DNA of 64,000 nt from Candidatus Pacebacteria bacterium UBA6180. GTDB taxonomy: Bacteria; Patescibacteriota; Microgenomatia; UBA1400; PJMF01. Below are positions 25,336 through 43,021 of this stretch, piece by piece; the stretch's first letter is position 1, and the number at the start of each line of letters is the position of its first letter. A model generated the notes under the pieces. The model did no database searches. It was not told where the DNA came from and was given only the letters and a program-made list of their open reading frames with translations. A program made the translations under genes and the position numbers. The DNA lies in NCBI GenBank assembly GCA_002422165.1, contig DITQ01000008.1, positions 125,082-189,081 of the forward strand. The letters run 5' to 3'.

Positions 25336-26535
25336 ATGAAAATTGCCGTTGTCATCATTCCGACTTACAATGAAAAAGGGAATATTGTCAAAACTATCGA
25401 GGCTTTGGCAGTAGTTTTTCAAAAAATTAAAAATTACCAAATGAAAGTTTTGGTAGTTGATGACAGTTCGCCAGATGGCACAGCAGAAGTGGTTCGTCAG
25501 TTGCAAAAAAAGTTTAAATTTTTAGAATTGTTGGTCAATTCAAAAAAATCTGGTTTAGGCGGAGCCTACCTAAGCGGCATGAAGCAAGCCTTTGGTAAAA
25601 TCAGGGCTGATCTTGTTTTTGAGTTCGACGCCGACCTATCCCACGACCCAGCCAAAATTCCTGATTTTCTAAGCAAAATCGATGAAGGTAATGACTTCGT
25701 GCTTGGCTCACGCTATATAGCTGGCGGCTCTATTCCAGAAAATTGGGCTCTGCATCGTAAATTTTTAAGCATTTTTGGTAACTTATTTATCAATTTTTTG
25801 ATGTTAGACTTCTCCCTGCGAGACTGGACGACTGGCTTTCGCGCTATCAAGAAAAAAGTCTACTTGGCAGTAGAAGCGGAGCTTCACAGCGAACGGTTCT
25901 CTGGCTATACTTTTCAAATTGGCTTCTTACATAAAGCGCTGCGTAAAGGTTTTAAAATTGCTGAAGTACCCTTTGCCTTCAAAGACCGCGTGGTCGGCAA
26001 ATCAAAAATTGGCCCGGAATACATCAAAAATACTATGCTTTACCTTATTAGAGTCAGAGTTAAAGAGCTATTAGCTATGCGCATAATCCGTTTTGCAATG
26101 GTGGGTGCTTTTGGAGCTATAGTTCAACTTGTAGCGTTACAATTGTGGCGCATTATTTTTGCAACCGAAAAAACCTTTGTTATTGCCAACTTTCTCTCGA
26201 TAGAGACTGCTGTTATTTCCAACTTCATCTGGAGCAACTTCTGGACTTTCAAGGACCGCAAGCTCAAGGCAAGTCAAATTCCCTTAAGCTTCATCACCTT
26301 CAATCTCTCCAGCGCTGGTTCGATTTTGATTCAAAGCGTAATTGCCTACGTAACTGCTCACACGGTTGGTTTGGTGCCATTATTCGTGGTGCCAACCATC
26401 AACTACACGGTTGACACGGGAGTCGTTTCAGCCATCATCGGTATTTTGATTGGCATGTTTTGGAACTTTTTTGCTTACAATACTTTTATTTGGAAGAAGA
26501 AAAAAGTTGATGAAAAATCGCCTGTCACAAATTAA
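25336..26535 (+). CDS. Polyprenyl-phosphate mannose/hexose synthase (Dpm1/Ppm1-like GT2) fused to a C-terminal GtrA-like 4-TM domain
   Basis: VVIIPTYNEKGNIVKTIEAL...VLVVDDSSPDGTAEVV...EFDADLSHDP, then RFAMVGAFGAIVQLVALQ... four TM helices (GtrA-like, as in archaeal DPMS). Confidence 0.75.
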   Translation: MKIAVVIIPTYNEKGNIVKTIEALAVVFQKIKNYQMKVLVVDDSSPDGTAEVVRQLQKKFKFLELLVNSKKSGLGGAYLSGMKQAFGKIRADLVFEFDADLSHDPAKIPDFLSKIDEGNDFVLGSRYIAGGSIPENWALHRKFLSIFGNLFINFLMLDFSLRDWTTGFRAIKKKVYLAVEAELHSERFSGYTFQIGFLHKALRKGFKIAEVPFAFKDRVVGKSKIGPEYIKNTMLYLIRVRVKELLAMRIIRFAMVGAFGAIVQLVALQLWRIIFATEKTFVIANFLSIETAVISNFIWSNFWTFKDRKLKASQIPLSFITFNLSSAGSILIQSVIAYVTAHTVGLVPLFVVPTINYTVDTGVVSAIIGILIGMFWNFFAYNTFIWKKKKVDEKSPVTN

Positions 26536-28063
26536 GTTTGAGCAAATTTTTTTAGTGCTAATTTTATTAGCAGCTATTTTTTTACGTTTTTATAATCTAC
26601 GCGATTCTCTAATGTTTCAGGGTGATCAGGGCAGAGATGCGCTAGTGGTCTCACAAATTTTCAAAGATTTAGATCCAGTTTTCATCGGACCGGTCACTAG
26701 CATTGGCAACATGTATCTAGGACCTTTTTATTATTATTTTATGCTTCCATTTTTGATGCTAAGTTATCCTGATCCGATGGGACCGGTTTTTGCGGTAGCC
26801 GCGCTTGGAGTTATCACAGTTTGGCTGCTATTTAAGGTTACTCGACAAATTTTCGGCATTAAAACTGCCTATCTAGCAACTTTTTTCTTCACTTTCTCTG
26901 CGGCAGCAGTTAACCTAAGTCGCTTCAGTTGGAATCCCAATATTGCTCCATTTTTCAGTTTGCTGATGTTTTATTTCACTTATTTAGCTTGGCAAAAAAA
27001 CAGCAAATACTGGCTAGCCGCCGCCATATGTTTTAGCTTGCTCATCCAATTGCATTACGTCACTCTTTTATCTTTTTCTGGACCAGCAATAATTCTATTA
27101 ATTCAATTAGTCGAAAAATACAAACTTACTCCAAAAAAATTCTTCATCAATCAAAAAAAATTGTTTGGCCATCTTGCTCTTTCGATAATAATTTTTCTAG
27201 TTTCCCTAGCTCCACTAGTTTTATTTGACTTCAAACATGACTTTATAAATGCTCGTTCCTTTAGCACAATCGTTGTCAAAGAAGATAGTTTCAACTTAGA
27301 GAAAAAAGCTAGAAAAGCTGGCTTTGGCACTTTGCAGAAATATTTTACACTTGACCTCAAAGATCGTGCTTCACAAGTTTTATTTGAACCAAGCTTTGGT
27401 GTTCACACTGCCAACCACCCACTACTTTTTATTACTGTCGGCTTAACACTTTTTTACCTACTCAAAACCAAAGTTCGTCTCAAAAAAGGCGAGATAGTTT
27501 TACTTGCCTATTTAGTCCCAGGCATTATCGGCGTCAGCCTATACCAACACCAAATCTACGAACATTACATTGCCTACCTCTTTCCTTTTATTTATCTTTT
27601 TTACGCTTTATTTTTTAGCAAAATCCGAAGTAGGTGGTTGCTAACCATTTGTTTATTACCTTTCGTAGTTTTTTTCATAATTAATAACGCCGGTCGATAT
27701 TGGCTTCAAGACAATAGCTGGACTATTGACGATATGCGCCATACTAGCGAAGCTATATTCGAAAGGGTCAAGGAAGGCGAGAAATATAATATAGTTTTGC
27801 TATCTGAATCTCGTGATCTCTACGGTATGAACTATCGCTATTTCCTGCATACCATGAGACAAGCTCCGGTAAAAATGGAGGATCACCTCTTGGCCAAAAA
27901 ACTTTTCATCATCAACGAAGAAAAAGTTGCCGATGACGTAGTTAGCTTACCCATTTACGAAATCATTGTCTTCAGAGGTAAATATGTCAGTGAAATTTTT
28001 CAAATAGAAAATGGCCCAGAAATTACTGTTTTAACTCGCTATAATGAACAGTCGTCACTATGA
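26510..28063 (+). CDS. Putative GT-C fold membrane glycosyltransferase
   Basis: LRFYNLRDSLMFQGDQGRDALVVSQIF... acidic loop-1 motif after TM1, about 12 TM helices. Start taken at ATG 26510 (M21 of the track ORF). Confidence 0.5.
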   Translation: MKNRLSQIKFEQIFLVLILLAAIFLRFYNLRDSLMFQGDQGRDALVVSQIFKDLDPVFIGPVTSIGNMYLGPFYYYFMLPFLMLSYPDPMGPVFAVAALGVITVWLLFKVTRQIFGIKTAYLATFFFTFSAAAVNLSRFSWNPNIAPFFSLLMFYFTYLAWQKNSKYWLAAAICFSLLIQLHYVTLLSFSGPAIILLIQLVEKYKLTPKKFFINQKKLFGHLALSIIIFLVSLAPLVLFDFKHDFINARSFSTIVVKEDSFNLEKKARKAGFGTLQKYFTLDLKDRASQVLFEPSFGVHTANHPLLFITVGLTLFYLLKTKVRLKKGEIVLLAYLVPGIIGVSLYQHQIYEHYIAYLFPFIYLFYALFFSKIRSRWLLTICLLPFVVFFIINNAGRYWLQDNSWTIDDMRHTSEAIFERVKEGEKYNIVLLSESRDLYGMNYRYFLHTMRQAPVKMEDHLLAKKLFIINEEKVADDVVSLPIYEIIVFRGKYVSEIFQIENGPEITVLTRYNEQSSL

Positions 28064-28815
28064 AAACCTATCTTTCAGTCATTTTGCCCTCTTACAATGA
28101 AAGTAAAAACATTGCTCGCGGTGTTTTGACAGAAGTCTACCAATTTTTGCTCGACTACGAGAGATCTTGGGAGTTAGTACTATCTGACGATGGAAGCAGT
28201 GATGACACTCCAAAAAAACTGCAAGAATTTGCCAAGCAGGACTCTCGCATCAAAGTCATTCTCAATCCTCATCGTGGCAAGGGCCCAACAGTCAAGGCTG
28301 GCATGCTTAAAGCAGAAGGCAGCTGGCGACTTTTTACTGATTTCGACCAATCTACTCCTCTTCGAGAAATTCGCAAACTCCTCAAACATACCTCTTCTCA
28401 TGAGGTGATCATTGGTTCTAGAGAGATAGTTGGCGCCAAACGGGAAAAAGAGCCATTTTATCGCCACCTGATGGGTCGAGGCTTCAATCTAGTTGTACAG
28501 CTTTTGGCTGTTCAAGGCACTCAAGACACCCAGTGTGGCTTCAAGCTGTTTTCTGCAACGGCAAGTGAAAAATTATTTGGCAATTTACACATTTACTCAG
28601 GAAAAAGCGAACGCCAAGACGCTTTTACTGGCGCTTTTGACGTCGAGCTGCTTTACTTAGCCAAAAAATACCACTTCAGCGTCAAAGAAGTCCCCATCCT
28701 CTGGAAACACTTCGCTACTGATCGAGTCAACCCCTTGCGAGATTCTTTTTTGATGTTTGCCGATATTTTGCGTATCAAGCTAGCAGACTTGCGTGGCAAA
28801 TATCCTAAGAGCTAG
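28060..28815 (+). CDS. Dpm1/ArnC-like GT2 (polyprenyl-phosphate sugar synthase-like), soluble
   Basis: LSVILPSYNESKNIARGV...LSDDGSSDDTPKKL...TDFDQSTP. Confidence 0.7.
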   Translation: MKTYLSVILPSYNESKNIARGVLTEVYQFLLDYERSWELVLSDDGSSDDTPKKLQEFAKQDSRIKVILNPHRGKGPTVKAGMLKAEGSWRLFTDFDQSTPLREIRKLLKHTSSHEVIIGSREIVGAKREKEPFYRHLMGRGFNLVVQLLAVQGTQDTQCGFKLFSATASEKLFGNLHIYSGKSERQDAFTGAFDVELLYLAKKYHFSVKEVPILWKHFATDRVNPLRDSFLMFADILRIKLADLRGKYPKS

Positions 28816-28834
28816 GTGGCGATATAAATGCAAA

Positions 28835-30019
28835 ATGAAAAAAGCCTTATTATTTAGTTATTTTGCTCTTTTTCTAATTTTTGCTGTTTTTTCTTTCGTA
28901 TTAACTGACCCTAATTTATTTTTACTCAAAGCCGACTGGTTCGTTAATTTTCAACTCTATCTCTGGCAAAATTTCCTCCCTCTGCAAACCTGGCGCACTG
29001 GGTTTTTTGTGGTTTTAGTGCTGCTGCTTTTTTGCAATTACATCCTCATCATTAAAAATTGGCCAAAATTAGAGTTGAATAGTCGCCGCGATTTTTGGCT
29101 GTTTCTAGCAGCTCTTAGTTTGCCACTAATTTTGTCTTATAACGCCCTTTCTTACGATCTTTTTAATTATATCTTCAACGCCAAGATGGTCATTGAGTTT
29201 GGTGCTAATCCGCACCTTAGAACTGCCTTGGAGTTTGCCGATGAGCCAATGTTGCGCTTCATGAACAATGTTCACACCGTGGCTCCATACGGTTATGGTT
29301 GGACAGGCTTGTCGCTTTTGCCTTACGCTCTTGCTGGCAGTAAATTTTTGGCTGCCTTCTTCTCTTTTAAGTTGTTTGCTTTGCTGTCTCTGTTGCTTTG
29401 TTTACTGATTAGTGAAAAACTTTTCACCAAGGTTAACTATCGCCAATTGGCCTTGTTTTTTCTAAATCCTTTAGTTCTAATCGAGGTGCTCAGCAGCGCC
29501 CATAACGATTTGTGGATGCTGTCGCCAGCCCTAGGGGCGCTCTACCTGGCAAGTAATTTTGAAAATAAAAAAACAACTAAGCTTTTATTAATTGTCCTGC
29601 TCCTTGGCATTTCTATTTCGATCAAATTCGCCACCATCCTACTACTTCCTTTTATTTTGTACTTGCTTTTGCAAAGCAAATTGCCCAAAATTCCCTACTT
29701 TTACGACTTGATGAGCTTAGCGATGTTTGCGCCACTCTTGACTGAGAGATCAAAACATTTTTTGCCCTGGTATTTACTCTGGGCTTTAATTTTTCTGCCT
29801 TGGCTCAAGAGTAGTCTCTGGCGACAGTTGCTGCTTGTCTTTTCGCTAAGTGCGCTGCTGCGCTACGTGCCTTGGATTTATTATTTGCCGTGGATGAGCT
29901 TTCATCTGGATACGAGCAATTTATTAGCCTATCAAAAAAGCGTTACCTGGCTAATTCCTGCTTTCTTCCTCTTGTCCAAAGGCCTGCTTGTCTTGTTTAA
30001 TAGAAGTCGTGCAAAATAA
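28835..30019 (+). CDS. Integral membrane protein, putative GT-C glycosyltransferase (DUF2029/GT87-like features)
   Basis: Multi-TM. ...ILSYNALSYDLFNYIFNAKMVIEFGANPH...HNDLWM. Start ambiguous: GTG at 28793 or ATG at 28835. Confidence 0.4.
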   Translation: MKKALLFSYFALFLIFAVFSFVLTDPNLFLLKADWFVNFQLYLWQNFLPLQTWRTGFFVVLVLLLFCNYILIIKNWPKLELNSRRDFWLFLAALSLPLILSYNALSYDLFNYIFNAKMVIEFGANPHLRTALEFADEPMLRFMNNVHTVAPYGYGWTGLSLLPYALAGSKFLAAFFSFKLFALLSLLLCLLISEKLFTKVNYRQLALFFLNPLVLIEVLSSAHNDLWMLSPALGALYLASNFENKKTTKLLLIVLLLGISISIKFATILLLPFILYLLLQSKLPKIPYFYDLMSLAMFAPLLTERSKHFLPWYLLWALIFLPWLKSSLWRQLLLVFSLSALLRYVPWIYYLPWMSFHLDTSNLLAYQKSVTWLIPAFFLLSKGLLVLFNRSRAK

Positions 30020-31484
30020 ATCTATTTTTTTCTTTTTGCTTTTACTCGGCCTCTACTTTGGGTTACATTTATTTCGTCTGACTGCTCTTCCAGTTTTCGC
30101 TGATGAGGCCATTTACATTCGTTGGAGTCAATTAATCATTGATGATTTTGATCGCTATTTGTTTTATCCCATGAACGATGGTAAAACTCCGCTTTTGATG
30201 TGGCTAAGCGTCCCACTGCTGCGCTTGATTGACAATCAATTGCTGGCTGCTCGCTTGGTCTCTGTACTTCTTGGGGCTGTCAGCGTTTCTTTCATTTTTT
30301 TGTTACTTCGTGAATTTAAACAAAAGCAGGCCGCTTGGTGGGGGATGTTTTTGACCATCATTGCTCCTTTTACTTTTTTCTACCACCGCCTTGCTTTGAC
30401 TGATTCCTTACTTTTATGTAATTTGATTGTCGCTTATTATTTCACCGTCAAAACTGTGCAGGGTAAAAACTGGCTAACAATTTTTGGATTAGCTTTGTTT
30501 TTTTTCCTCGCCGTCATGAGTAAAACTCCAGCTTTGCTGTTTATTCCAGTTTTTTACTTCACGATTTTTTTGACTCCAAAATTGACTTGGCGAGTACTAC
30601 TGCGACAATTTTTGCTCATTAGTTTTGGTTTAGGCTTAGCACTTTTGACTTTTTACAGCTTTAGGGTAATACCGCTTTTCACTCAGCTTTTTGCCGTTGG
30701 TGGTAATTTTCTCCAAGATCGAGAAACAATTTTATCGGCTGCTATTTGGCCAGTAGTCTGGCGCAATGGCAATTTTTTTCTCGAACAGTTAATGATTTAT
30801 TTAGGACCGATTATTTTAATTTTGGCCCTACCACTTTTCACCAAAACTAGACGTTTGCAACTGATTTTGTTTCTTTCAGCTATTTTATTTCTACTCCCCC
30901 TCATTCTCATGGGTAAAATCATCTACCCTCGATACATTCTGCCCAGTAGTTTTTTGCTGCTTAGTTCCGCAGCAATTTCACTAACTCACTTACGCTTCCA
31001 CAAGTTTTGGCGCGCGCTGCTTTTAGCTCTAATTCTTTGGCCTAGCCTGATGTTTATCCAAACCTCTTATTTCAAAGTCGACCAACTTCCGCTAAGTACA
31101 GCCGACCGTGAACAATTCTTTGAAGAATGGTCTTCAGGCCAAGGCATCAAGGAAGCTAGTGATTTAATTATTGAGCTCGCTAGAAACCAAAAAGTAGCTG
31201 TTGCCACCGAGGGTTATTTTGGCACTTTACCTGACGGGATTTTGCTTAACTTGCACAACAAAGACGTCAGTAATATTTATGTAGAAGGCATTGGCCAACC
31301 AGTGAGAGAAATTCCCAAAGAATTTGTTCGGAGAGCGGAAGATTTTGACCTCAAATTATTAGTCGTTAATTCACATCGTATGAAAATAGAACTCCCATCC
31401 TCACAGTTGCTTAGAAGCTACTGTCGACCCAATCAAGCTCCTTGCTTGCAGATTTGGCAGTTAAACGAAGAAAATTTTAAGTAA
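29988..31484 (+). CDS. GT-C membrane glycosyltransferase, ArnT/PMT-like
   Basis: LHLFRLTALPVFADEAIYIRWSQ... (DE motif), multi-TM, 498 aa. Confidence 0.7.
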   Translation: MSCLIEVVQNKSIFFFLLLLGLYFGLHLFRLTALPVFADEAIYIRWSQLIIDDFDRYLFYPMNDGKTPLLMWLSVPLLRLIDNQLLAARLVSVLLGAVSVSFIFLLLREFKQKQAAWWGMFLTIIAPFTFFYHRLALTDSLLLCNLIVAYYFTVKTVQGKNWLTIFGLALFFFLAVMSKTPALLFIPVFYFTIFLTPKLTWRVLLRQFLLISFGLGLALLTFYSFRVIPLFTQLFAVGGNFLQDRETILSAAIWPVVWRNGNFFLEQLMIYLGPIILILALPLFTKTRRLQLILFLSAILFLLPLILMGKIIYPRYILPSSFLLLSSAAISLTHLRFHKFWRALLLALILWPSLMFIQTSYFKVDQLPLSTADREQFFEEWSSGQGIKEASDLIIELARNQKVAVATEGYFGTLPDGILLNLHNKDVSNIYVEGIGQPVREIPKEFVRRAEDFDLKLLVVNSHRMKIELPSSQLLRSYCRPNQAPCLQIWQLNEENFK

Positions 31485-31513
31485 ATTTTAAGTTGAAGAC
31501 TTAATATCTGTCT

Positions 31514-31942
31514 GTGACAGATGTTTTCTTACTGACTCAAGCTATAGAAGAAGTGATTGACCAGATGAAATCGGCCAATCAACAATTAATTTTAATAAAT
31601 AAAATTAACTTTCCAGCAGAAATGAAACTACAAGGCAAGAAAAAAATCTTTACACAATTTTTCTATGAGCTACTTTGCAAAGCTGAACTTTCTTATCAAG
31701 AAACAGTTTCCAATAAAATTATTTTACTCACCAGCAAATTTGAAACTGACCAAAAATTGTCGATTAGTATTACTGACGGAGGTCATCTAAACAAACCATA
31801 CTCGCTTCGAGATGTAAATCTAAATGACCGCCTAGCAAGCGTCATAATTGCACTAAAAAATGAATTTTCTGGTAAATTAGAAATCATCAGTCGCAATAGC
31901 AAAGGTAAAACCATCAAATGTCTTTTGCCCTTAAATCAATAA
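31514..31942 (+). CDS. Hypothetical protein with degenerate histidine-kinase-like ATPase (HATPase_c-like) features
   Basis: 142 aa. ...FFYELLCKAEL (N-box-like, but without Asn), SISITDGGHL (G1-like), ...GKTIKCLLPL (C-terminal HK-like). No DHp/His domain. Start is GTG at 31514; other in-frame starts are possible. Confidence 0.35.
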   Translation: MTDVFLLTQAIEEVIDQMKSANQQLILINKINFPAEMKLQGKKKIFTQFFYELLCKAELSYQETVSNKIILLTSKFETDQKLSISITDGGHLNKPYSLRDVNLNDRLASVIIALKNEFSGKLEIISRNSKGKTIKCLLPLNQ

Positions 31943-32588
31943 ATTTGTAGCCACGATTTTTGTAAGTTAAGATTTGAAAATCTTCCGCTGGTAATTTAGA
32001 ACGAATTCTCCTGATGTAGACACTAATGGTTTTTTTAATTGGCAGAACTTCCCTATAACCCCAAACATAACTGGCAATTGTCTCATAAGAAATAACCATG
32101 TTTTGGTGCCTGATCAAGCACTCTAGAATTTTAAGCTCTTGAGGACGTAGTTGTAAATTTGCCTGCGCAGAAAAATTATTTTCTCTAAGTAAGAATTGGT
32201 TATTTTCTAAAAAGTCTTGGTTGCCTAGTTTGCGCATGCGTAGTAAATTATTAATTTTTAACAACAATTCACCAAAGTGTAGCGGCTTAGCCAGAAAATC
32301 ATCAGCCAACTTAAGTGTCTCAATCCTCTCTGCTAAAGATTTGTGGCGACTAATCACTAGGGTCCGAAGAAACAAATGTCGTTCTTTAATTTTTTCCAAT
32401 AAATCTAGACTACTGCCATCTGCTAATTTTCGCTCAGCAACCAACAAATCAAAGCTGTCTTTTTTAAGCAATTCTTCAGCCCTAGTAAGCGACTGGACAC
32501 AATTCACCAAATGACCTCTTTTTTCCAATAACGTCCTTAGAGAAGACATTACAAAATAATCATGGTCTAGAATTAAGATTTTTTGCAT
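31914..32588 (-). CDS. OmpR/PhoB-family response regulator (REC + winged-helix) with Glu at the phospho-acceptor position
   Basis: ILILDHDYF..., DLLVAERKLADGSS (aligns with DLILLDWMLPGGSG of PhoB, so D->E), LAKPL (conserved Lys). C-terminal ISYETIASYVWGY...VYIRRIRSKL...GYKF (trans_reg_C). Confidence 0.75.
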   Translation of the reverse strand: MQKILILDHDYFVMSSLRTLLEKRGHLVNCVQSLTRAEELLKKDSFDLLVAERKLADGSSLDLLEKIKERHLFLRTLVISRHKSLAERIETLKLADDFLAKPLHFGELLLKINNLLRMRKLGNQDFLENNQFLLRENNFSAQANLQLRPQELKILECLIRHQNMVISYETIASYVWGYREVLPIKKTISVYIRRIRSKLPAEDFQILTYKNRGYKFIDLRAKDI

Positions 32589-32662
32589 TGTGTTGACCTC
32601 ATGTCACCAAAAAACTCTTTTTGTTATATAATCGAAACATAAAATAATCTTAAAATTTAGAC

Positions 32663-32733
32663 TCCCGGGTAGTGAAATGGCATCACCACTGACTCTGAAT
32701 CAGTTATTCTAGGTTCGAATCCTAGCCCGGGAT
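32663..32733 (+). tRNA. tRNA-Gln (anticodon CUG)
   Basis: Manual fold: acceptor TCCCGGG/CCCGGGA, D-arm GTGA-AATGGCA-TCAC, anticodon arm ACTGA-CTCTGAA-TCAGT (U33, anticodon CTG, A37), T-arm CTAGG-TTCGAAT-CCTAG, discriminator T. CCA is not encoded. Confidence 0.8.
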
Positions 32734-32743
32734 CAATCAATTT

Positions 32744-32992
32744 ATGACAAACAACGAAAATTTGGAAAAAGAAATCCACCAACTAAACAAAACTATCCTC
32801 AAACTTGATAAACGTCACAATCTAACTAATTCGCTACTTAGAGGAATTTTTTATGGACTAGGCTCTGTCATTGGTGCTACTATGGTATTCGCTTTGCTAG
32901 CTTACTTATTGCGAAATATAGAATTGATTCCTGTCATCGGGTCTTGGACTGCACAGCTCATAGAACACGTTAATAGTGTCTCTAGCAAATAA
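32744..32992 (+). CDS. Small membrane protein (hypothetical)
   Basis: 82 aa with an N-terminal coiled-coil-like region and one TM helix (GIFYGLGSVIGATMVFALLAYLL). Confidence 0.4.
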   Translation: MTNNENLEKEIHQLNKTILKLDKRHNLTNSLLRGIFYGLGSVIGATMVFALLAYLLRNIELIPVIGSWTAQLIEHVNSVSSK

Positions 32993-37908: not shown

Positions 37909-38265
37909 ATGCCAAAAGAAGCTAGAATAGCCATTATCGAGGATCATAAAGATTATCTTCAAGTTATTGAAGAATTTCTTCAGGAGAACGGTCACATAAT
38001 TGTAAAAATAGCAACAACTTTCCCAGATGCATTGCTTTTAGCTAAGAATTTAAAAAGATTGAAAGTGAGTATTGTCATACTAGACGGAAATCTCACTCCA
38101 GGCAAAATTGACGGTAAAGAAGGTCAGCTTATATTAACAGCTATTAGAAAATACGCTCCACATATTAAAGTAATTGGAATTAGTTCTGTGAAATTTGAAG
38201 GCGTCGATCTAGACCTATTAAAAAGAAATATAAAAACAATTGGAGAAGCTGTTAACAACCTTTAA
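37909..38265 (+). CDS. Stand-alone response-regulator receiver domain protein (CheY-like)
   Basis: 118 aa: IAIIEDHKDY...VSIVILDGNLTPG...VIGISS. Receiver-like, with no output domain. Confidence 0.6.
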   Translation: MPKEARIAIIEDHKDYLQVIEEFLQENGHIIVKIATTFPDALLLAKNLKRLKVSIVILDGNLTPGKIDGKEGQLILTAIRKYAPHIKVIGISSVKFEGVDLDLLKRNIKTIGEAVNNL

Positions 38266-42028: not shown

Positions 42029-43021
42029 CTAGTCGTTATTGTACTCGTTTTCCTGTAGTTTTTGCCACTCGTAATTGTTAAAAATCCAAGCCAACAACTT
42101 ACTAGTATCGAGATAACGATCTTGACTATTCATTAGGCTAATTAAAATCTGCTGACCCTCTCTCTCGACAAGAGTAATCAGAACTTCACCAGCCAACTCG
42201 GTTGTGCCTGTCTTGACACCTCTCACTCCGCGAATTCTACCAAGCAGCTGATTGGTGTTGTACAAATCATAAGTCCAACCCTGATCTGGATTGGCAATCC
42301 GCTTGTATGGTGTGGCTACTAATTCTCGAAGGTAAGGTTGTTTGAGCAACTCTCGAGCGATAAGATTGAGTTCTCGAGCGGTGCTAAGCTGACCATCCTC
42401 ATCCAGTCCGGCTGGATTGCTAAAATGAGTCTCCACTAAACCTAGCTGCTGCGCCTTTTGATTCATAGCTGCAACAAAACCAGTCGAACCGGTAGGGTAA
42501 TTGTTGGCCAAAACGTAGGCACTGTCGTTGGCCGAATTAATTAGTAAAGCAGCCAAGAGATCAGCGGTCGTAATTTGCTGACCAGGATCTAGAGACAGCT
42601 TGGTGCCAAGAGTGGTAGCGGCCTCGCTAGCAACTAATAATGCTTGATTTAAATCAAAAGTATCTATAGCCACCAAAGCAGTCATCATTTTGCTAGTTGA
42701 GGCGGGATAAAGCCCCTGGTCGGCGTTTTTCTCGTAGAGCAAAGTCATTGAAGTCAAGTCAACGACGTAAGCAGCGGTAGCACTAATTTCTAGAGTTTGC
42801 TCCGTCAAACCTGAAGCGCGCAAAATGGGCAATTCCTCAATTGTTGCCAATTCCAACTCATAACTCAATATCTGCTGCTGTGGGTAGAAAAAAAACAAAT
42901 AGAAAGAAACAAAGAGCGAAACAAACAGCAATAAAACAAGAATAAAATTAAATTTTTTCACTAATTCATTGTAACAAAAATCTCTTAGGCTAGTTGCATA
43001 ATTTTGGAAGTTTGACCACAA
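42029..43021 (-). CDS. D-alanyl-D-alanine carboxypeptidase (peptidase S11, PBP5-like)
   Basis: N-terminal TM; SxxK active-site motif in YPASTSKMMTALVAID; ...SANDSAYVLAN (SxN). Confidence 0.8.
   Translation of the reverse strand: MWSNFQNYATSLRDFCYNELVKKFNFILVLLLFVSLFVSFYLFFFYPQQQILSYELELATIEELPILRASGLTEQTLEISATAAYVVDLTSMTLLYEKNADQGLYPASTSKMMTALVAIDTFDLNQALLVASEAATTLGTKLSLDPGQQITTADLLAALLINSANDSAYVLANNYPTGSTGFVAAMNQKAQQLGLVETHFSNPAGLDEDGQLSTARELNLIARELLKQPYLRELVATPYKRIANPDQGWTYDLYNTNQLLGRIRGVRGVKTGTTELAGEVLITLVEREGQQILISLMNSQDRYLDTSKLLAWIFNNYEWQKLQENEYNND

Follow-up and report, generated by a model that had tools for sequence, protein, structure and literature searches.

Receiver domains that lack the phospho-accepting aspartate (Asp-less receivers) are common, and both their origin and their control are poorly understood. 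Glutamate is the commonest replacement in such receivers (26%), the first residue of the acidic pair (DD1) and the lysine are mostly kept, and the second residue of the pair (DD2) is acidic in only 29% (PMC4395418); asparagine at DD2 and glutamate at the acceptor are typical changes, and 18 of the 20 bacterial atypical regulators described in a 2025 review are orphans (PMC12632262). Here we describe a locus in 64,000 nucleotides of DNA from Candidatus Pacebacteria bacterium UBA6180 (contig DITQ01000008.1, positions 125,082 to 189,081; the whole of this stretch is called the window), where an OmpR/PhoB-type regulator with glutamate at the acceptor position converges on a 142-aa open reading frame (ORF) derived from the catalytic and ATP-binding (CA) domain of a histidine kinase. 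We consider this locus, with a probability of about three in four, to be what remains of a small cytoplasmic two-component system in which phosphotransfer was abandoned and a stump of the kinase was kept.

Several atypical regulators resemble the one in the window. CmrT of Clostridioides difficile also belongs to the OmpR/PhoB family, carries glutamate at the acceptor (E53), keeps the threonine or serine and the lysine, and has lost DD2, reading D-G-D where the window regulator reads D-H-D. With D-G-D and E53, CmrT is taken to be a constitutive dimer, which was inferred and partly shown, and both changes recur in AtvR (PMC12548384). The CmrT operon also encodes CmrS, which is an intact kinase, and CmrR, a canonical paralogue of CmrT, whereas in the window the kinase gene is a convergent stump reduced to the CA domain (CA-only) and no canonical OmpR-type paralogue adjoins the regulator. 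ChxR of Chlamydia trachomatis and AtvR of Pseudomonas aeruginosa are likewise OmpR-family proteins with an acceptor glutamate that are thought to work independently of a kinase (PMC4395418, PMC12548384). The pocket region of ChxR is without a stretch of secondary structure (PMC4395418), whereas the window receiver is predicted to form a complete (βα)5 fold. A limited literature search turned up no conserved kinase remnant beside ChxR or AtvR.

CosR of Campylobacter was the best sequence match of the regulator in the PDB (8uuz/8uvx) and shared the best fold E-value (8uvk), and it also lacks the acceptor aspartate, with serine in the aligned column instead of the glutamate found here. HP1043/HsrA of Helicobacter (2hqr) was the fourth match by sequence and ranked only 41 by fold. 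Both are orphan atypical regulators, identity over the fold alignments being only 22-24% for CosR and 20% for HP1043, and the limited literature search turned up no kinase-derived partner for either of them. On the kinase side, DivL of Caulobacter and RetS of Pseudomonas have a kinase fold without normal phosphorylation and signal by protein binding; these are large multidomain proteins that keep the dimerization and histidine phosphotransfer (DHp) domain as an interaction surface (PMC4211667). The 142-aa ORF, which had the kinase regions of RetS among its fold matches, differs from both in being a bare CA domain for which protein binding is only putative. The limited literature search revealed no account of an Asp-less regulator accompanied by a conserved CA-only kinase descendant; it likewise gave nothing on DHp-less kinases paired with regulators and nothing relevant on two-component systems in Patescibacteria. 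Taken by itself, the regulator adds one more ordinary protein to a class already known; what is new, to a modest degree, is the conserved stump together with the decay series described below.

Catalytic residues, fold and family of the regulator

Both domains of the regulator scored above their Pfam cutoffs, as expected from a reading made from the sequence alone (the sequence-only reading), which had called it an OmpR-type regulator. Response_reg (PF00072) matched residues 4-112 (2e-13; 50.9 bits against a cutoff of 30.2) and Trans_reg_C (PF00486) residues 144-216 (2.1e-16; 60.2 bits against 26.2). NCBIfam gave sub-threshold matches only, to many OmpR-family equivalogs (PhoB, TctD, PmrA), and for this reason we assign the protein to the OmpR/PhoB family outside any named orthologue group.

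The catalytic positions were read from alignments to canonical regulators and to regulators in the PDB. Both sets align Glu52, in the motif FDLLVAE52RKLADGSS, with the phospho-aspartate column, and neither placed an aspartate there, so that the glutamate seen by the sequence-only reading at this site stands. DD1 is Asp8 and is kept, whereas DD2, the second and Mg-binding aspartate, is replaced by His9, which leaves the pair with a single acidic residue; Asp10 occupies the position following the pair and is no part of it. Ser80 and Lys101 (followed by Pro102) are present, and Phe98 is kept at the K-3 position. The sequence-only reading had described the acidic pocket and the conserved lysine as intact, which is right for the lysine and wrong for the pocket. 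Overall, the regulator is without two of the five residues required for phosphoryl transfer. Glu52 and His9 fit the published definition of an Asp-less receiver or pseudo-receiver (PMC4395418, PMC12632262), and the alignments lead us to class the protein there, as had been suggested earlier, and not among canonical receivers. A sequencing error at Glu52 is unlikely, since independent assemblies from ENA, JGI and Logan contain the identical protein, for which NCBI too is named as a source.

An AlphaFold model computed from an alignment of 32 family members (mean predicted local distance difference test, pLDDT, 81.5) predicts a full (βα)5 receiver, a disordered linker at residues 121-143 and a winged helix. 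The modelled receiver superposes on that of Escherichia coli PhoP at 1.1 Å with a template modelling (TM) score of 0.92, and the top PDB matches of the regulator were CosR, VbrR, KdpE and PmrA.

About 48 orthologues of the regulator were found, all of them derived from metagenomes or metagenome-assembled genomes. Among 32 aligned members the acceptor column holds glutamate in 23, aspartate in four and another residue in five; glutamate, whose conservation the sequence-only reading had proposed to check in orthologues, is therefore the majority residue. DD1 is glutamate or aspartate in 28/32, whereas DD2 is asparagine in 14, serine in five, histidine in two, aspartate in two and something else in nine. 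Serine occupies the threonine/serine column in 29 members and lysine the lysine column in 29. These counts match the published statistics for Asp-less receivers cited above. The DNA-binding domain accounts for 12 of 18 invariant columns, which are found at residues 148-213 and include V190, Y191 and R193-R196. Judged by its alignment, the family has the profile of a transcription factor in which DNA binding is strongly constrained and the chemistry of phosphorylation has been abandoned. Two cysteines were also observed in the family: all 32 members have Cys157 (about 32118-32120), which lies in helix 1 of the DNA-binding domain, and in most members a cysteine directly precedes the acceptor glutamate (LCER), where the window protein has Ala51. 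RitR and HP1021 are examples of redox control.

The kinase-derived gene and its relatives

Searched alone against Pfam and NCBIfam, the 142-aa ORF gave nothing significant, the noise being DUF5636 at 0.055 and PnpS at 0.029. Its identity as a CA domain was shown through orthologues and structure because the ORF by itself falls below Pfam detection. Of the three profiles that the sequence-only reading had named for a check, Response_reg and Trans_reg_C matched the regulator, and HATPase_c failed to match the 142-aa ORF itself but matched five of ten orthologues chosen by their position in related loci (best 2.3e-7). A profile of these ten gave a weak match to PDB sequences (ZraS at 0.021), and profile searching collected 23 family members of 133-161 aa. 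Over its full length the ORF aligns with residues 70-213 of a 214-aa kinase encoded at the same place in one related locus, L020 (36% identity, E 2e-21); that protein matches HisKA at residues 6-58 with 26.5 bits, just below the 26.9 cutoff, and HATPase_c with 50.7 bits. The AlphaFold model of the 142-aa protein (pLDDT 83, predicted TM score 0.79) resembled in Foldseek the CA domains of ThkA, HK853, ZraS, PhoQ and RetS (E 1e-9 to 1e-7, TM about 0.7-0.77), the values for that of ThkA being E 1e-9 and TM 0.75. Orthologues, homology to the kinase and predicted fold all point to the HATPase_c (Bergerat) fold, and bear out the kinase-ATPase-like layout noticed earlier.

The ORF begins at the CA domain and has no DHp/HisKA region and no phospho-accepting histidine. 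The N-box asparagine is replaced by Lys56, G1 is represented by D88-G-G-H followed by a 10-residue deletion of the ATP lid, and the G2 box is absent; the lack of the N-box asparagine, of G2 and of a DHp domain had been recognized correctly by the sequence-only reading. Across the 23 family members G89-G90 is invariant, the N-box asparagine is found in 12 and the adenine-binding aspartate of G1 in seven, and G2 is missing in all CA-only members. With asparagine and aspartate at these frequencies, ATP binding does not appear to be a conserved property of the stump family. Since the DHp domain with its histidine and the ATP-binding motifs were looked for and are wanting, we regard the product, from its alignments and model, as a stand-alone degenerate kinase-derived CA domain and not as a histidine kinase. 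A database copy of this ORF (P0080; NCBI and Logan sources) is only 106 aa long, compared with 142 aa in the window; the longer form, starting at GTG, is backed by the orthologue alignments.

Fifteen related loci were found in uncultured bacteria with small genomes (among the relatives with complete contigs, for instance, the 853-kb chromosome CP011212). As far as the contigs extend, they share one gene order: tRNA-Gln, the regulator diverging from it, the kinase-derived gene convergent with the regulator and, on the strand of the latter gene, PMT_2, MptA_B-family, GT2, PMT_2 and GT2-GtrA genes. The 3' ends of the two facing genes overlap in the whole set, or 15/15: by 11-31 nt for most CA-only partners (29 nt in five of them), by 50-65 nt in L023 and L024, by 4 nt in L020 and L021, and by 35 nt in L022, where the overlapping gene is a different one. 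The 29-nt overlap reported earlier for the window pair is confirmed.

The loci can be arranged in four states. L020 and L021 combine a canonical receiver (E8-D9, D52, serine and lysine) with an intact kinase, a soluble protein of 212-214 aa made of DHp and CA (H-box LKHGINNP, N-box LINNA, G1 TDGGTG, G2 SGQGLY); they are the only loci with a canonical receiver and the only ones with a HisKA-bearing partner. They are true positional orthologues of the window locus and share with it the tRNA-Gln, the glycosyltransferase genes and the convergence of the 3' ends, but they keep the H-box histidine, the N-box asparagine, G1 and G2, whereas the window ORF has lost the H-box histidine, the N-box asparagine and G2; and their receiver retains all five catalytic residues (E-D, aspartate, serine and lysine), two of which the window receiver has lost. 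The second state, to which the majority and the window belong, is a CA-only stump with a glutamate receiver. In the third the stump accompanies either a receiver that kept the acceptor aspartate and lost DD2 to asparagine or glutamine (L025, L026) or one whose acceptor is neither aspartate nor glutamate (L023, L024). In the fourth, represented by L022 (1939-5455), the kinase remnant is gone, the regulator keeps the aspartate with H-Y as its DD pair, and a single 952-aa ORF, a fusion of the MptA_B-family gene with the PMT_2 gene, overlaps the 3' end of the regulator.

CA-only partners of 133-171 aa occur in 12 related loci, or 13 with the window, and where it was measured the gap between the preceding gene and the partner is 29-48 nt, which shows that the DHp coding region is gone from these loci. 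In the window just 29 nt separate the PMT_2 stop from the CA-only ORF, which argues that the DNA encoding DHp was deleted rather than only mutated. When 1.84 billion representatives were searched exhaustively with a profile, CA-only proteins (up to 172 aa) ranked first, followed by dozens of 207-275-aa proteins matching through their C-terminal 150 residues, and 207-275 aa is the size expected for minimal DHp+CA kinases. Because the search places the CA-only proteins beside proteins of minimal-kinase size, CA-only is most simply the derived state. The loss of DHp and of DD2 probably came before the change from aspartate to glutamate, or independently of it, since L025 and L026 keep the aspartate beside a stump. 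Aspartate and glutamate were swapped within the stump-bearing clade, and DD2 was not restored (P0036); after kinase loss the two acceptor residues appear to be interchangeable.

Both genes are intact ORFs at 35-60% protein identity. More than 20 clusters, diverging to about 35% identity, carry the stump as an uninterrupted ORF of stable length, and 14 columns of its alignment are invariant. For the 25 most similar of 78 locus pairs, the proportion of nonsynonymous differences (pN) was lower than that of synonymous ones (pS) for stump and regulator alike, with crude ratios, rough because synonymous divergence (dS) is saturated, of 0.16-0.69 for the stump (mostly 0.2-0.45) and 0.09-0.25 for the regulator. 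In the comparison of L020 with L021 the intact kinase gave 0.18 and the regulator 0.17. Since its ORF stays open across this divergence, the stump does not look like a neutral remnant, and these comparisons indicate that both genes are kept by selection.

Layout of the locus and other signalling genes

The coordinates of the features are collected in Table 1.

Table 1. Features of the regulator locus (positions in the window)
Feature	Coordinates	Strand	Details or basis
OmpR/PhoB-type regulator gene	31914-32588	-	224 aa, ATG start
Receiver (REC) domain, aa 1-118	32235-32588	-	Alignments to canonical regulators, family residue counts
Glu52 codon GAG, phospho-acceptor column	32433-32435	-	Sequence and alignment
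His9 codon CAT, DD2 column	32562-32564	-	Sequence and alignments
Winged-helix DNA-binding domain, aa 144-216	31941-32159	-	Trans_reg_C match
CA-only ORF, 142 aa, GTG start	31514-31942	+	Kinase CA homology and fold
29-nt convergent 3' overlap, regulator/CA-only ORF	31914-31942		Coordinates
tRNA-Gln (anticodon CTG)	32663-32734	+	ARAGORN
Regulator/tRNA-Gln spacer, 74 bp	32589-32662; conserved block 32620-32657	-	Alignment of 14 loci
Glycosyltransferase cluster GT2-GtrA, PMT_2, GT2, MptA_B-family, PMT_2	25336-31484	+	Pfam

The CA-only ORF is the final same-strand gene of an envelope glycosyltransferase cluster and, given the common strand and the short gap to the PMT_2 gene, is probably co-transcribed with it. 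A hairpin (ATCTGTC-TGT-GACAGAT) with a T-rich tail lies in this gap, at 31503-31525 (+), and spans the GTG at which the CA-only ORF starts, so that expression of the stump could be attenuated or gated by it. Convergent transcription over the conserved 3' overlap is another candidate control point. The region 1449-31484, almost half of the window, is made up of genes for envelope glycosylation and polysaccharides, among them at least five PMT_2, about 7-9 GT2, GT4/GT1 and LytR_cpsA_psr genes, a Polysacc_synt flippase, a UDP-glucose dehydrogenase and epimerases, which is an unusually high density of glycosylation genes for a small genome.

The tRNA-Gln directly upstream of the regulator, which the sequence-only reading had also noted, diverges from it, 74 bp from the regulator ATG. 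A tRNA-Gln of the same sequence lies divergently upstream of the regulator in 14/14 related loci for which upstream DNA was read, and the idea that this tRNA was a peculiarity of the window was dropped, as it is present in every locus examined. The 74-bp spacer is conserved far more than the proteins. Its conserved block, ATTTTAAGATTATTTTATGTTTCGATTATATAACAAA on the minus strand, includes a pair of invariant TTTTA pentamers at a distance of 11 bp, as well as the invariant palindromic ATTATATAAC. Tandem sites of OmpR-type regulators have the same 11-bp spacing. The block could be a bidirectional promoter for tRNA-Gln and regulator, an operator for the regulator, or both, and its elements may equally be -10-like promoter hexamers of the two divergent genes. 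The spacer pattern occurred twice in the window against 0.14 expected; the second match, at 42932-42948, lies in T-rich coding DNA for the hydrophobic N-terminus of a DD-carboxypeptidase gene and was treated as chance. A consensus scan for sigma-70 promoters and terminators over 31300-32900 gave nothing above shuffled sequences.

The kinase screen of the window, based on the Pfam families of the called genes and on additional scans of ORFs, covered most ORFs; no HisKA/HATPase_c protein was found among those screened, which include glycosyltransferases, aminoacyl-tRNA synthetases, TrkAH and DnaG. This agrees with the earlier statement that the window holds no intact sensor kinase. A single-domain receiver of 118 aa at 37909-38265 (+) keeps E-D and the acceptor aspartate (VILDGNL), its Pfam match covering only positions 1-79 of 111. 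In addition, several relatives carry a second signalling cluster beyond the tRNA (L004 2545-5847, L008 4651-7855, L020 820-4817, L023 66-4854, L024 86-4875), which encodes a membrane HATPase_c kinase with the H-box GLVHDIR (in L008 with asparagine for histidine), a protein of 600-650 aa, a protein of 236-247 aa and an OmpR-type regulator with a degenerate DD pair. When the membrane kinase, the 236-aa, 284-aa and 600-aa proteins and the second regulator were used as tblastn queries against the window, there was no match at 1e-2. Decay of two-component systems may be general in this lineage.

Proposed course of events, rival explanations and significance

In the course of events that we favour, the ancestor would have had a DHp+CA kinase of about 213 aa, whose gene closed the glycosyltransferase cluster and faced that of a canonical OmpR-type regulator. 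On the way to the window locus the His-bearing DHp region of the kinase would then have been deleted and its ATP-binding motifs would have drifted, and the regulator would have lost DD2 (to His9 here, to asparagine in most relatives) and exchanged its acceptor aspartate for glutamate. By analogy with CmrT, AtvR and ChxR, Glu52 together with Ser80 and Lys101 may hold the receiver in the active α4-β5-α5 dimer state or bias it towards that state, and the output of the regulator would follow from how abundant it is, or from some non-phosphoryl input, instead of from a kinase. The CA-only protein, presumably unable to autophosphorylate or to pass on a phosphate, would be a non-catalytic pseudokinase domain under selection, made along with the glycosyltransferases and possibly acting on the regulator by binding. 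Likely targets of the regulator would be its own promoter, common with tRNA-Gln, and the adjacent glycosyltransferase cluster.

Signalling without phosphotransfer, as the sequence-only reading had proposed, is strengthened by the majority of glutamate at the acceptor (23/32) together with the family-wide loss of DD2, and by the finding that canonical receivers occur only beside intact DHp+CA kinases; the replacement of the second aspartate by His9 makes independence of phosphorylation more likely still. Several points weigh on the other side. A change from aspartate to glutamate is not activating in every case (PMC4395418, PMC12632262), and activity of this regulator free of phosphorylation is a prediction from its sequence and from analogy. 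Contact between stump and regulator, as well as the targets of the regulator, are putative, and saturation of dS makes the estimates of selection rough. Furthermore, the kinase screen was confined to 64 kb, the contig alone measuring about 237 kb, and the canonical-looking receiver at 37909-38265 implies some kinase or phosphodonor elsewhere in the genome.

That last point is also what favours a regulator still governed by a kinase encoded elsewhere, through phosphorylation of another residue, through binding of the kinase or through a heterodimer such as that proposed for CmrR/CmrT: the window encodes another receiver that keeps its aspartate, the genome was seen in part only, and in most related loci the membrane HATPase_c kinase (GLVHDIR), along with another OmpR-type regulator, lies at a distance of a few genes. 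We think this quite improbable, given that the upstream cluster of the relatives was not found in the window by tblastn, that their second regulators are degenerate at the DD pair too, and that Glu52 and His9 exclude the normal chemistry of aspartate phosphorylation. A different explanation takes the 142-aa ORF for the fragment of a dead kinase pseudogene and the regulator for an orphan atypical one, their pairing having no present function. The window copy has no significant Pfam match of its own and shows the most eroded motifs of the family (lysine in the N-box, the 10-residue lid deletion), the stump evolves faster than the regulator, and the L022 lineage lost it entirely. Against these observations stand the uninterrupted ORF of 133-171 aa in so many divergent clusters with its invariant columns, pN below pS in the 25 most similar pairs, a confidently predicted fold (pLDDT 83) and the conserved gene position and 3' overlap, and for these reasons we judge a pseudogene unlikely.

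The stump might instead use ATP, either as one half of a split kinase or as a Ser/Thr kinase or anti-factor of the SpoIIAB/RsbW kind. Its size would suit a stand-alone GHKL kinase, G89-G90 is invariant, about half of the family has the N-box asparagine, and the intact relatives give sub-threshold matches to HATPase_c_2. This is nevertheless very improbable: HATPase_c_2 (PF13581) did not match the 142-aa ORF, the G1 aspartate is found in only 7/23 members and G2 in none of the CA-only ones, the window copy lacks the N-box asparagine and part of the lid, and no gene for a HisKA-only protein, a STAS protein or a sigma factor was seen in the locus. A more specific form of the remnant explanation, which we put forward tentatively and hold to be rather doubtful, makes the CA-only protein a dedicated non-catalytic partner of the glutamate receiver whose vestigial nucleotide pocket may serve to sense a ligand. 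If true, the pair would still be a two-component switch, working by protein binding instead of phosphotransfer, and the level of the stump would feed the output of envelope glycosylation back onto the regulator, since the stump ends the glycosyltransferase cluster and its transcript runs towards that of the regulator and overlaps it.

As a probable remnant of a two-component system that gave up phosphotransfer, the locus belongs to a syntenic series running from an intact kinase with a canonical receiver, through a stump with a degenerate receiver, to a regulator that has lost even the remnant of the kinase. The successive changes by which a two-component system turns independent of phosphorylation can be read in their order from this series, and it offers matched natural proteins from before and after the change, with which one may ask whether glutamate and the loss of DD2 are enough for constitutive activity. 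The retained stump raises the possibility of a regulatory role for a CA domain alone. The setting is that of uncultured bacteria with small genomes, in which regulation is scarcely studied, and a clue to what the regulator may control comes from the adjoining cluster for envelope glycosylation.

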